From a virus (Duplodnaviria > Heunggongvirae > Uroviricota > Caudoviricetes): a stretch of 7,575 nucleotides of DNA. The stretch lies in IMG/VR virus record IMGVR_UViG_2534681674_000011; one strand, given 5' to 3'. Positions 3,001-6,000 of this stretch are shown in pieces. How positions within the stretch are numbered: the stretch's first letter is position 1; every line of letters begins with the position of its first letter. The position numbers are program-made.

Positions 3001-6000
3001 TCTGTCATGAAGGGCACAAAATAAACGCCCTCACTCTCCCTGTTTTTATACCCGCCGTACACGGTGTCGTACTGGGTAGCGTATGTATTTTTCCAGTAAT
3101 ACGTCGTGTCACCACAAATCCACGGCACATCTGCAGCACTGCCACCATGGCACTGCGCGTTAAACACGGAGAGGTCAGCACGAAACTGTGTCAGCATGGC
3201 TGTAAACAGCGCAGGTTGCTGTGCGTGGGTGGCGGCGCTCATGTCAAACTCTCCCTGCATCCAGCACACCGCCAGCAACACATTTTTCGGGTTCTTCTGT
3301 AATGCAGCTTTAGTGCGCGCAATCAGGTCCTGATATAACGGTTTACCCACACCCCAGCGCGCCGAATCCTGGCTGGCCCCCGTGTCCGCACTGAATGTCC
3401 CCTCCGCGCCCTGGGTAAATGCCGAACCACCACGACAGCATGGTACCAGCAGGATCCCCGCGTTATTCGGGATATACGGGAGCAGTTTTTTGGCAATATG
3501 TAAGCCCTGGCCGACACAGCCGTACTGCCCTTTGCTCAGGTCTGCCTTCGGATGATTCAGCGTACTCATATCCTGCACATCATGCAGGCAGTGGTCGGCC
3601 GGAATAATATCGTTATATCTGCAGGCAGCCCCACCCGGCGTCACTGTACTGCGGCGCGCCAGCTGTTTAATGCGCGGATCCGGAGCATCGTATGAATTCG
3701 GCAGCGGAAGCCCTTCACCGTAAGCCATGGCATTGGACTGCCCGGCCAGTACGATGACGTAGTACCAATCCGGCTCAGTTGCACCACTGACCACCACATC
3801 ACCTTCTGCTGTAATCGCCTGCATCAGGGTATAAGGGGTTATGGCCACCGGACTACCAAACGGCTGCCAGCCCTCTTTCAGTTTGTGTGTCAGCTTTTCC
3901 GCAAGGTCTGACGGCGACGCCGCCCTGACAACATCATAATGTTTAAATGTCATTATTCCTCCCGGCCGGGATAGTGTATTAAATCAGATATGGAGTGGGC
4001 TGTAGTCCGGAAGCCTGAATGACACACGGGGACTACAGCCCAAAAAACGAAAAAGGCCACGCAGTTGCGCAGCCTGATAAACCCTGGTTAAAATCCACAC
4101 GATAAAAATGACAATGCAAGTATCTCATGCTGTTGCCCGAACCCACTCGGGCTTTTTTTTGCATGTAAAAAGGCTCCTGCGATGAGGAGCCTGGATATAT
4201 GCCTAATCTCTGTATACAGCATGATGCCGGGTGCCTCCCGGTGAGTTCGGCCTGGTGCCACCAAACCCGCGTATTCTCGCTTACGATCATCAAAGAGATC
4301 ATACCGTTCACCAGTCGCCCCTCCGCACAGGGGGATTCACCATGCAGAAATTTTCTAACACATCTATTATCAGACCGGCAACAACTGACTGAATTGAGAT
4401 GTATTTAACATTTATGAATCTCCGCCTGCTATTTTCACTGAGCTATTCTGAGTCAACGAAAAATAACTTCGCTGAATCCCCCTCCATTATGACAGGCATT
4501 AGTTTTAATGGTTACAGTCATCCCCGTAATTTGCGCACTGAGAAGAAGAGACTGAAGATTCCATCTGTTGGTAAATAATTCTTTATCACCCACTTTAACT
4601 GTAAAGGTATCGTCATCATTATATTTTGTATACTCCACCTTTCCAGTTACACAATCAGGCGTCGCCAGCGCACTTGCTGAAAAAAATGAAAGCGATGCAG
4701 CTATTAATAATGTTTTTTTCATTTTACCCCCTCAACTGCTAATAGTTCTGCGCATCAGAATTGCCCCCAGAGTGGATGAATCCCACAATATTTTATTGTG
4801 CGTAATCCCACGGACTCTTCCATCTGCCGGACACATAGAAGGAAACTCATCAGATGCCATTCTGGCAACTCGCGATGCATGATGATGACAATTCAGTATT
4901 AATGCCACGCTTCCCAGAATTGCATTAATGCTTCCAAAAGAAATTCTTCCTACACGAACAGAGTCTTGTCCATGATAGTCAGGCAGGACGCTACTCAACC
5001 TTCCCCAGTTCAATGTAAGATCAACATCTTCAGCAGTCATTACATAAGAACGCCCACTGAGATCATCCAGTGTTGTACGAAATCCCCTCTGTATTTGCCG
5101 AAAACGTAAAGCTTCAGCTGTCACAGTAACAAACCGTAACATCGCTCTTGCCACAGACTGCGTCAGTGAGGTTCCACTATGCGACATTAAATCCAGATAA
5201 GAAGTAGTCAACGAATGGCGATTTATCTGCATCCCCGTACGACTGATCCCTGCAACACGCTGTAACGTGGTATAGCTACTGTCACCAGACAATGTAACCG
5301 CTGTTGTACCTGGAAAGGTAACATGTGAAAAATCAGCAAAGCGATAAAAAACATTATTTGTCCTGTTAACAAATCCTGTCACATATAAATTATTTCGTTC
5401 AACAATAAGCCGTAGATTATTAAACCGCCCTTCCTCTGGATCTATCCCTCTGACATCAACTGCAAACAAATTATCCCCTGAGCCACTATCAATCATCAGT
5501 AAAGACGTACCTCCTGATGAAATAGTCTGTAATGGAGTACCTATTGCAGAGCGAATGACATTCAGCGAATCTACATACGTCTTTGCAGTCGAGAAGTCTA
5601 AGGTAAATTCCTTCGCCACCACATTAACTGAAAAGATAACAAAGAAAAAAGTTAGCACTCTAAAAATAATTATTTTCATATTACACAATACTCCTTGAGC
5701 ACCATACGATAACTATATTCTTGACATCCTCCACGCCCTGAAGGACGGCGTTTTACGGCGCACCGGATAAACGTAACAATAACGTAATGAAAATGATAAT
5801 CATATTCAAAGAGAGCTGCAACCTTAACATATCTGGTCAGATCTCATGCGACTACTTGACGTACGTAGATAACAACATTTATTGATACACAGGATGTTAC
5901 GGACATAAAAAAGCCAGCCACTGGGGGAGGCTGGCAAACTCGTAGAGCAAAATGCTGTTACGCAAACTTCGTTACAGGGTCATCCTGCAATACAAAAAAT

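Follow-up and report, generated by a model that had tools for sequence, protein, structure and literature searches.

The window analysed here, a 7,575-nt stretch of Caudoviricetes DNA, comes from an H-19B-type Stx1a prophage, and its central part holds the interval between the stx1B stop codon and the start of nanS-p, both on the minus strand. Judged by other lambdoid prophages, stx1AB would here be the insert downstream of the late promoter PR', and the slot would separate it from the nanS-p esterase gene and the lysis genes. The interval very probably carries a convergent pair of small RNA genes, in which an STnc100/EcOnc27-type RNA on the minus (toxin) strand faces EcOnc03 on the plus strand. 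Both RNAs, their facing arrangement and their site 3' of stx genes are already known, having been published as an "sRNA dyad", and are not new; such convergent pairs have been published 3' of stx2B and in Sp3, 4, 9, 10, 11, 15 and 17. Sequence identity, family membership, promoter conservation, structure and conserved context were observed directly in this analysis. Expression, Hfq dependence and primary 5' ends were demonstrated elsewhere on identical or homologous copies, so that statements about transcription in the window prophage are transferred from those copies and would apply to it by analogy. The features are, in order along the window:

3953..3951, minus strand: ATG start codon of nanS-p, with a GGAGG ribosome-binding site at 3962..3958 (from sequence)
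3997..4041, minus strand: 12-bp hairpin in the nanS-p leader, with arms GGGCUGUAGUCC ... GGACUACAGCCC (read from sequence)
4044..4075, minus strand: second toxin-strand intrinsic terminator, stem 4075..4054 (9 pairs, 6 G-C), tail UUUUCGUUUU at 4053..4044
4065..4094, plus strand: EcOnc03 sigma-70 promoter, -35 TTGCGC at 4065-4070, 18-nt spacer, -10 TAAAAT at 4089-4094 (by conservation)
4100..4159, plus strand: EcOnc03, a 60-nt sRNA of the prophage anti-sRNA class (exact sequence match and Rfam)
4106-4156, plus strand: the published 51-nt form of EcOnc03 (exact match to the published sequence)
4135..4160, plus strand: intrinsic terminator of EcOnc03, stem 4135-4152 (6 pairs, 5 G-C), then T8 at 4153-4160
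4161..4374, minus strand: STnc100-family sRNA of the EcOnc27/EcOnc28/sRNA103/PasD kind (Rfam RF02076)
4166..4192, minus strand: intrinsic terminator of the STnc100-type RNA, stem 4192..4171 (8 pairs, 5 G-C), then UUUUU
4375..4412, minus strand: conserved block immediately preceding the Rfam 5' boundary, AAATGTTAAAT...CAATTCAG...GTTGCC
4455..4453, minus strand: stop codon of stx1B

The hairpin in the nanS-p leader did not figure in the initial annotation of this DNA; its arm ends, GGGCUG/CAGCCC, are retained in Sp15, Sp5, Sp10 and Sp17.

EcOnc03 and its promoter

Window positions 4100-4160 are 100% identical to EcOnc03 of the Sakai prophage Sp9 (PMC4104026), with the same promoter hexamers, and the reverse complement of the published EcOnc03 Northern probe corresponds to 4100-4133. 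Within the gene, a variable 5' region (4100-4118) is followed by a conserved 3' part and the terminator. Its traits are those of the anti-sRNA class: a predicted short unit of 51-60 nt that has its own promoter and begins with CGAU; a variable 5' specificity region of 14-18 nt, present in the window as the EcOnc03 allele; a 3' region of about 42 nt, represented by 4119-4159, which matches EcOnc03 exactly and departs little from AgvB and AsxR; and a longer sRNA facing it between a PR' moron and nanS-p. The Rfam AgvB model matches 4100-4159 with 56.6 bits, marginally above its gathering score of 56, and the RNA folds with a minimum free energy of -13.9 kcal/mol (z = -2.2). In E. coli O157 Sakai, EcOnc03 was described as an Hfq-dependent RNA of 56/~54/51 nt belonging to the AgvB/AsxR anti-sRNA class, with 5' ends that carry a 5'-triphosphate by RLM-RACE (Tree et al. 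2014, PMC4104026); it is destabilised without Hfq and was among the three most recovered unannotated Hfq-bound RNAs. By analogy, the window copy would start at about 4100-4106 and stop at the terminator at 4135-4160, yielding an RNA of 51-60 nt.

The initial annotation had placed a plausible promoter at 4065-4094 and proposed that it drives a plus-strand transcript of about 60 nt, perhaps a small antisense RNA. The transcript agrees with EcOnc03; the antisense label does not stand, as the RNA is antisense to no gene. EcOnc03 is a member of a class of trans-acting, Hfq-dependent sRNA sponges. The promoter is present as described and weak by consensus (8 of 12 positions), and it is conserved and correctly placed before RACE-mapped starts. 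A promoter scan, which did not list it, returned 12 sites with at least 9 of 12 consensus positions in the window against 8.8 expected, so that its strength does not exceed chance. Its hexamers and spacing are nonetheless invariant among the window, BP-4795 and Sp9 (EcOnc03), Sp5 (AsxR), and Sp10 and Sp17 (AgvB1/2), and the promoter is unchanged in 116 of the 119 readable IMG/VR family loci among the matches listed. RACE-mapped primary 5' ends of the anti-sRNA class begin with CGAU, 6 nt past the -10 element. What lends the promoter credibility is thus its conservation, together with the 5' RACE published for identical or homologous genes, rather than motif strength.

AgvB (EcOnc01, RF02702), the anti-GcvB sponge of Sp10 and Sp17, is the best Rfam family for the plus-strand RNA and shares its promoter, 3' region and context, and over the promoter-side flank (3954-4099) the window and the AgvB loci are 96-100% identical. 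EcOnc03 differs in lacking CACAACA, the motif with which AgvB imitates GcvB targets and base-pairs to the R1 seed of GcvB. Because CACAACA is replaced by AAAAUGACAAUG and the predicted GcvB duplex does not surpass what shuffled seeds achieve, we rejected AgvB as a name. AsxR (EcOnc02, RF02703) of the Stx2 phage Sp5/933W shares its promoter and its 3' 42 nt with EcOnc03 and differs in its variable 5' region, CGAUUAUUAAAACG as opposed to CGAUAAAAAUGACAAUGCA in EcOnc03. AsxR pairs with the terminator loop of FnrS, while EcOnc03 had no FnrS preference in our duplex screen. An AsxR identity was also rejected, since the AsxR model scores 46.8 bits on EcOnc03, below its gathering score of 63, and FnrS is outside the six best predicted partners.

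AgvB sponges GcvB and AsxR destabilises FnrS (Tree et al. 2014, PMC4104026). By analogy with both, EcOnc03 would bind Hfq, and its variable 5' 19 nt may pair with and inactivate a host small RNA. We screened its 5' 20 nt against 22 core sRNAs of MG1655, an incomplete panel, with ViennaRNA duplexfold, which ignores accessibility and Hfq. Both controls, AgvB-GcvB and AsxR-FnrS, ranked first, and no credible partner of EcOnc03 emerged from this panel, as 58% of shuffled seeds did as well. Its best duplexes, with SgrS (-12.3 kcal/mol) and GcvB (-10.9 kcal/mol, compared with -19.4 kcal/mol for AgvB), then ArcZ, McaS and MicC, did not beat shuffled seeds, and a literature search for a published EcOnc03 target returned none. 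In cis, the longest perfect complementarity of EcOnc03 or the STnc100-type RNA to the stx1AB mRNA, the nanS-p leader or each other did not stand out from shuffled sequences; the best match, 11 nt between the STnc100-type RNA and the 3' end of stx1B, is attained by 7% of shuffles. A minus-strand match to the GcvB model (16.3 bits, E = 0.34) was set aside as it involves the terminator hairpins only.

The STnc100-type RNA on the toxin strand

The toxin-strand RNA matches the entire Rfam STnc100 model (positions 1-206 of 206) with 190.7 bits against a gathering score of 47. It begins 78 nt past the stx1B stop codon, on the same strand and with no terminator between, and it folds with a minimum free energy of -78.6 kcal/mol (z = -2.9). 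The family is present at the same position in eight other loci. An alignment of eight prophage copies holds 31 consensus pairs, six of them with compensatory changes, and all eight retain the closing helix GCAUGGUG/CACCAUGC as well as the CCCCC/GGGGG and CCGGG/CCCGG hairpins. Relatives described as STnc100 (RF02076), EcOnc27, sRNA103 and PasD1/2 share the full-length model match and core helices, and likewise lie downstream of stx and directly upstream of the sialate esterase gene; STnc100/EcOnc27 has been published directly downstream of stx2B. Overexpression of sRNA103 raised fimZ and espA transcripts (Gruber & Sperandio 2015), and PasD1/2 are relatives of STnc100 (Zhu, Shabalina & Storz 2026 preprint). 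The initial annotation had suggested that the long tail after stx1B has no convincing ORF and could carry regulatory RNA. Both suggestions hold up: judging by the Rfam match, the tail is predicted to encode a full-length sRNA of the STnc100/EcOnc27 type, and no ORF in it is conserved by Pfam, PHROG or homologue comparison.

That the tail instead encodes a small protein, from an ORF of 92 aa (4033..4311, minus strand) or 69 aa (4199..4408, plus strand), is extremely improbable. BP-4795 does have an annotated hypothetical protein, ORF42, at this site, and translated ORFs match phrog_35554, phrog_23494 and phrog_24488; these PHROG matches, however, fall on overlapping ORFs in three frames and on both strands, the pattern expected from repeated mis-calling of conserved non-coding DNA, and the translations include no Pfam family. 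A stop interrupts the 92-aa ORF in BP-4795 and Sp9, and in Sp5 it is disrupted by frameshifts as well as stops; frameshifts also break the 69-aa ORF in Sp5, Sp9 and Sp4, and homologues differ by indels of 1, 2, 4 and 19 nt. We therefore rejected a protein-coding tail on the absence of a Pfam match, the PHROG matches in three overlapping frames and the breakage of the ORFs in close homologues.

The 3' part of the RNA (4225..4161) has the predicted anatomy of an Hfq module, namely an A/U-rich single strand followed by a terminator hairpin and U tail. The Hfq CRAC peaks called EcOnc27 (Sp5) and EcOnc28 (Sp9) map to the homologous 3' part of the STnc100-type RNA once AsxR and EcOnc03 are used to anchor the coordinate shift, with EcOnc27 falling on the equivalent of the 3' 75 nt. 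Upstream, the block at 4375..4412 is common to Sp5, Sp9 and Sp4 regardless of whether stx1B, stx2B or tRNA-Arg precedes it. EcOnc27 gave Northern bands of 235 and 247 nt, only one of them Hfq-dependent, and these sizes would place its 5' end within the equivalent of this block, which probably holds the true 5' end of the STnc100-type RNA, whether as a promoter-proximal start or a processing site. Scanning and inspection of the upstream sequence for sigma-70 hexamers yielded none that convinced; TTGACT (4456..4451) lacks a usable -10, and TTAAAT (4408..4403) lacks a -35 and is not conserved in Sp5. In sum, the toxin strand would give rise to an Hfq-binding RNA of about 210-250 nt, reaching from some 40-80 nt past the stx1B stop to the terminator at 4192..4171.

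How this RNA originates is a separate matter. It might be cut by RNase E from the stx1 mRNA as that transcript's true 3' UTR and so track toxin transcription (Fur or Q), a possibility that we consider rather unlikely. Such an origin would fit the start 78 nt past the stop with nothing terminating between, the lack of a convincing sigma-70 promoter, the two EcOnc27 bands, of which one is Hfq-dependent and which could reflect processing, and the precedent of the related PR'-derived StxS, made by RNase E processing. It fits less well with detection of the RNA in uninduced cultures, with the reported binding of RpoD at STnc100 promoters in Salmonella, and with the finding that the module is also located after unrelated morons and tRNA genes, where the same conserved block of 40-50 nt precedes it. 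The stx1B "3' UTR" is a portable sRNA module, present as well in stx-free settings downstream of tRNA genes or of other morons. The two origins, as a 3' UTR and as an independent gene, are compatible and concern biogenesis only, leaving the identification of the RNA unchanged.

Terminators and insulation

The minus-strand terminator at 4166-4192 lies 261 nt downstream of the stx1B stop, as the initial annotation had it (about 260 nt), and the plus-strand terminator at 4135-4160 faces it as described. The window contains 17 terminator-like sites, compared with 7.0 +/- 2.3 in shuffled sequences, and three of the five best cluster within 4054-4192. Folded alone, the hairpins at 4200..4161 and 4085..4040 reach -13.5 kcal/mol (z = -3.65) and -14.9 kcal/mol (z = -2.9), respectively, relative to shuffles. 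The stem at 4192..4171 is the final helix of the Rfam STnc100 model, the EcOnc03 terminator is unchanged across the family except for one compensated loop-side position, and the 4075..4054 terminator core is invariant in all six aligned loci. The latter minus-strand terminator overlaps the -35 hexamer of EcOnc03 and was absent from the initial annotation. A single bidirectional terminator, with one hairpin between an A tract and a U tract, was rejected, as there are two distinct hairpins, each with a one-sided U run; on the minus strand, the plus-strand terminator's T8 lies upstream of its hairpin. A search of the literature covered for an earlier description of a terminator after stx1B turned up nothing specific. 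The 3' ends of EcOnc03 and the STnc100-type RNA would abut with no real overlap.

Insulation of stx1 from nanS-p fits this anatomy, in which the toxin strand has two terminators in tandem and the opposite strand one, as a putative side-effect and not as an alternative to the sRNA reading. We infer the sponge target, the insulation and the induction behaviour of the dyad, the latter two from general knowledge of Q antitermination. In the lysogen, the STnc100 terminator and its backup at 4075..4054 would halt transcripts not modified by Q, including those initiated at the Fur-regulated stx1 promoter, short of nanS-p and the lysis genes, and the plus-strand terminator would prevent EcOnc03 transcription from entering stx1B. 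After induction, Q-antiterminated polymerase from PR' would read through every terminator of the dyad and cross the EcOnc03 promoter, producing an RNA wholly complementary to EcOnc03.

The hairpins might also do no more than insulate the toxin operon and the nanS-p and lysis genes from each other in both directions, with any short RNAs as functionless by-products. Three strong terminator-like hairpins within 140 bp, two of them in tandem on the toxin strand, would suit that role, as would Stx1 production from the iron-regulated promoter, which is reportedly not accompanied by phage lysis. We nevertheless regard this explanation as improbable. An insulator has no need of an invariant promoter 35 nt upstream of the plus-strand terminator, the promoter-to-terminator sequence occurs in only three discrete alleles among the loci listed, two of which have demonstrated trans targets, an identical RNA is abundant on Hfq and Hfq-dependent, and the 200-nt STnc100 body keeps a multi-helix fold with compensatory changes.

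Distribution of the dyad and its significance

In Sp5, Sp9, Sp10, Sp17 and BP-4795, an STnc100 gene and an AgvB/AsxR-class gene converge with their ends 0-2 nt apart. Our IMG/VR census covered at least 120 loci, and all of its counts refer to the matches listed. Among these, the STnc100 core is convergent in 116 of 120, the opposite side is occupied by a nanS-p homologue in nearly all 120, and only three 5' alleles occur, that of EcOnc03 in 25 of the 120. AsxR adjoins stx2B in all 20 of its listed loci, EcOnc03 adjoins stx1B in 7 of its 25, and AgvB is beside an stx gene in none of its 74.

The closest counterparts differ from the window in what surrounds the shared parts. In Sp9, the convergent partner of EcOnc03 has a 3' end 98% identical to the window over 4161-4225, and nanS-p lies downstream in both; the 5' two-thirds of the partner are only 66% identical, and the Sp9 copy follows tRNA genes in a toxin-free prophage while the window copy follows stx1B. 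The AsxR and EcOnc27 locus of Sp5/933W has the same order, with a toxin B gene, an STnc100-type RNA about 75-80 nt on, a convergent anti-sRNA of 51-60 nt, and nanS-p. In the Sakai Stx1 phage Sp15, the published 3' "bookend" of stx1AB is EcOnc42 (Sy et al. 2020, PMC7547250), an unrelated RNA of about 271 nt that occupies the slot opposite the stx1 strand between the STnc100-type RNA and nanS-p, with TTGCGC kept. Identity between the window and Sp15 is 19-33% over 4100-4225 and 100% over 4226-4412. An EcOnc27 probe found no match in the window within 3 mismatches owing to allelic differences, and neither did the EcOnc08/21/42 probe, since the window is without that RNA. By its sequence, the window dyad is a three-way mosaic distinct from the Sakai Stx1 phage, which has EcOnc42.

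We tentatively hypothesize, without holding it to be the likelier outcome, that the dyad is an exchangeable cassette in which EcOnc03 sponges a host sRNA and Q transcription turns the sponge off. Through recombination within the conserved core of STnc100, the Hfq-binding 3' end and the anti-sRNA facing it would be exchanged as one unit, giving rise to lineage-specific pairs such as AsxR with stx2 (20 of the 20 loci listed), EcOnc03 with H-19B-type stx1 and EcOnc42 with Sakai-type stx1. If this is true, H-19B-type Stx1 lysogens would rewire a different host regulon than Sakai-type lysogens, and prophage induction would switch off the sponge through promoter occlusion and perfect antisense.

As a discovery the dyad carries little weight, because both RNAs, their arrangement and their position 3' of stx are already published and in Rfam. 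It has some minor practical consequences. Annotations of Stx1a phages (RefSeq; the H-19B, BP-4795 and YYZ-2008 records) leave this stretch blank or fill it with a spurious "hypothetical protein", and the sRNAs published for Stx1 phages were catalogued from the Sakai prophage, with EcOnc42. The H-19B-type Stx1a phages matched here, including those of O26, O45 and O103 strains, carry EcOnc03 in its place. EcOnc03 is among the most abundant Hfq-bound RNAs in EHEC, and its link to stx1 is a reason to seek its target.

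A convergent small RNA pair between stx1B and nanS-p

The dyad, a pair of facing small RNAs, lies in the 499-nt gap between stx1B and nanS-p, among genes that are all encoded on the minus strand. The window represents an H-19B-type Stx1a prophage and, from position 828 or 831 onward, shows 99.6% identity to phage H-19B and 99.9% to the Stx1a prophage in O26:H11 FWSEC0001.

Genes and terminators around the dyad
5688..4732, minus: stx1A
4722..4453, minus: stx1B
4192..4171, minus: stem of an intrinsic terminator, followed by UUUUU (consensus scan)
4135-4152, plus: stem of an intrinsic terminator, followed by T8 (consensus scan)
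4075..4054, minus: stem of a further terminator (consensus scan)
3953..2103, minus: SASA/nanS-p esterase, 616 aa

Both of the facing terminators proposed in the initial annotation were recovered by the consensus scan, together with the minus-strand terminator at 4075..4054, which that annotation lacked. The window holds 17 terminator-like sites where 7.0 +/- 2.3 would be expected; three of the top five are found in the 140-bp stretch that contains these terminators, and the dyad hairpins folded in isolation give z = -2.9 to -3.65.

Away from the dyad, the 445 nt separating the nanS-p stop from the holin gene (1658-2102) have at their end the strongest terminator-like hairpin of the whole window (11 pairs, 1738..1712, minus); precisely the same slot holds the sRNA PasA in Stx1 phage YYZ-2008 (Zhu et al. 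2026). A further strong hairpin of this type, AACCCGCCGATGCGCGGGTT followed by a T run (6140..6121, minus), is located ahead of stx1A, about 46 nt past the stop codon of Q (6186). The left end (1-827) is an IS3-family element with an Rfam ALIL frameshift pseudoknot (495..379, minus, 120.2 bits). The ORF at 782..1051 (minus) corresponds to the region of endolysin gene R; since H-19B-type homology begins only at 828/831, within R, the endolysin appears truncated, and the prophage may have lost the capacity to lyse its host.

Identity of the two RNAs

The roughly 60-nt plus-strand RNA anticipated in the initial annotation can be named from sequence matches: 4106-4156 is exactly the published 51-nt sequence of EcOnc03, and 4100-4133 is the reverse complement of its Northern probe. 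Over 4100-4159 (plus), the Rfam AgvB model scores 56.6 bits, barely above its gathering score of 56, while the AsxR model scores 46.8 bits, below its gathering score of 63. Hfq crosslinking in the E. coli O157:H7 strain Sakai uncovered the "anti-sRNA" class, of which AgvB and AsxR are the two curated representatives; EcOnc03 is a third abundant member, with sizes of 56/~54/51 nt, 5'-triphosphate ends located by RLM-RACE, and destabilisation without Hfq (Tree et al. 2014, PMC4104026).

The promoter claimed for this RNA is present (TTGCGC at 4065-4070, 18 nt, TAAAAT at 4089-4094), matching the consensus at only 8 of 12 positions and thus, by motif strength alone, no better than chance. We aligned the window with BP-4795, Sp9 (EcOnc03), Sp5 (AsxR), and Sp10 and Sp17 (AgvB1/2), the Sp loci being Sakai prophages. 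All six share the two hexamers, their 18-nt spacing and a CGAT start without change; the following 14-19 nt vary by allele, and the 3' 42 nt are conserved once more. A scan of IMG/VR for the conserved 3' region of the class returned at least 120 loci; the matches listed hold only three 5' alleles (AgvB, 74; EcOnc03, 25; AsxR, 20), and the same hexamers and spacing in 116 of 119 readable loci. Because it is conserved and placed ahead of RACE-mapped starts, the promoter at 4065-4094 is credible.

On the toxin strand, the suggestion that the tail after stx1B carries a regulatory RNA is borne out by a full-length match to STnc100 (RF02076) at 4374..4161 (minus), which scores 190.7 bits where the gathering score is 47. 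The predicted fold (-78.6 kcal/mol, z = -2.9) comprises a closing helix and three hairpins preserved across eight prophage copies, with compensatory change at six pairs. The copy behind stx2B has been equated both with sRNA103 of EDL933 and with EcOnc27, which measures 235/247 nt on Northern blots, and the family has been linked to PasD of EPEC; one paper places a copy 75 nt after the stx2 operon, compared with 78 nt after the toxin operon here. This RNA may have its own promoter or may be processed from toxin-strand transcripts. An independent promoter would fit a conserved block that reaches some 40-50 nt beyond the upstream Rfam boundary whichever gene precedes it, the EcOnc27 sizes, which are compatible with a 5' end inside that block, and reported RpoD binding at STnc100 promoters in Salmonella, although convincing hexamers were not found upstream.

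As the initial annotation held, the tail contains no convincing ORF: those over the STnc100 stretch were ruled out as genes, having no Pfam family and carrying stops or frameshifts in BP-4795, Sp9 and Sp5. PHROG matches of the tail ORFs are spread over three overlapping frames and both strands. Over the dyad (window 4033-4408; BP-4795 locus 3622-3849), phrog_35554, phrog_23494, phrog_24488 and BP-4795 ORF42 are likewise overlapping ORFs in different frames on both strands, and most likely arise from mistaken annotation of conserved non-coding DNA.

A recurrent module with a mosaic sequence

In Rfam scans covering BP-4795 and eight prophage loci of Sakai, STnc100 is convergent with an AgvB/AsxR-class gene, ends 0-2 nt apart, in Sp5, Sp9, Sp10, Sp17 and BP-4795; its partner is a different one in Sp15, Sp4 and Sp11. 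Among the 120 IMG/VR matches listed, 116 have a convergent STnc100 core, and nearly all carry a nanS-p homologue on the opposite side; AsxR adjoins stx2B in 20 of 20 loci, EcOnc03 adjoins stx1B in 7 of 25, and none of the 74 AgvB loci has an stx neighbour. "Convergent sRNAs ... encoded 3' of the stx2B gene" have been described, with Sp15 among similar cases (Tree et al. 2014, PMC4104026), and a 2021 review calls such pairs dyads that "bookend" stxAB. The dyad is therefore a correct rediscovery of a known feature, the earlier observation being confirmed and its interpretation supported; the present analysis establishes which RNAs these are, the families they belong to, their structure and context, and the conservation of the promoter.

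Segment-wise identities resolve the dyad region into a three-way mosaic within 460 bp.

Closest relatives of dyad segments
4413-4452, as far as the stx1B stop: Sakai Sp15, 97%
4226-4412, STnc100 core and upstream block: Sakai Sp15, 100%
4100-4225, STnc100 3' end and EcOnc03: Sp9, 98-100% (versus 19-33% to Sp15)
3954-4099, promoter side and nanS-p leader: AgvB loci of Sp10/Sp17, 96-100%

Relative to BP-4795, O26 FWSEC0001 and other H-19B-type phages, seven substitutions all fall within 4042-4097 (56 bp), sparing both promoter hexamers and both RNAs and making the patch agree with the Sp10 and Sp17 AgvB loci. The pattern suggests a short tract of gene conversion among resident prophages. The 1998 H-19B record (AF034975.3, ~3400-3600) shows small deletions and rearranged bases relative to modern Stx1a phages, all in or beside G+C-rich dyad hairpins (e.g. 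AAAAACGC--GCGAG and CTC-GGC), which look like sequencing compressions.

The window lacks EcOnc42, which in the Stx1 prophage of Sakai has been published as the bookend 3' of stx1AB. In Sp15, its probe (2729-2763 of the locus, plus) spans the counterpart of the anti-sRNA promoter, where the TTGCGC motif is kept, so the ~271-nt RNA must start further upstream, probably antisense to the nanS-p 5' end. EcOnc42 represents a different use of the slot that holds the anti-sRNA in the window.

Possible action of EcOnc03

Identical or homologous RNAs have been shown elsewhere to be expressed, to have primary 5' ends, and both to bind Hfq and to depend on it. By analogy with AgvB, which blocks the GcvB seed, and AsxR, which opens the FnrS terminator, the 5' 19 nt of EcOnc03 would, on Hfq, inactivate a host sRNA. 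In a screen of 5' seeds against 22 MG1655 sRNAs, AgvB-GcvB (-19.4 kcal/mol) and AsxR-FnrS, both of them known pairs, each came first; the top partners of EcOnc03 in this set, SgrS (-12.3 kcal/mol) and GcvB (-10.9 kcal/mol), were no better than for shuffled seeds. Complementarity in cis to stx1AB, the nanS-p leader or the partner RNA was within chance. Within the first STnc100 hairpin, UGAAUCCCCCU (4339..4329, minus) is perfectly complementary over 11 nt to AGGGGGAUUCA (4483..4473, minus) near the stx1B 3' end; as 7% of shuffles equal this, it may be chance. A different 11-nt match, of STnc100 to stx2B, appears in a published note.

At the level of transcription, the two tandem minus-strand terminators would halt non-Q-modified transcripts, such as those from the Fur-regulated stx1 promoter, ahead of nanS-p and the lysis genes. 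On transcription from PR', Q-modified polymerase would read through, overrun the EcOnc03 promoter and produce antisense to EcOnc03. The remaining value of the dyad lies in the correction of annotation, in the presence of EcOnc03 in H-19B-type Stx1a phages where the Sakai-type phage has EcOnc42, and in the question of the EcOnc03 target.
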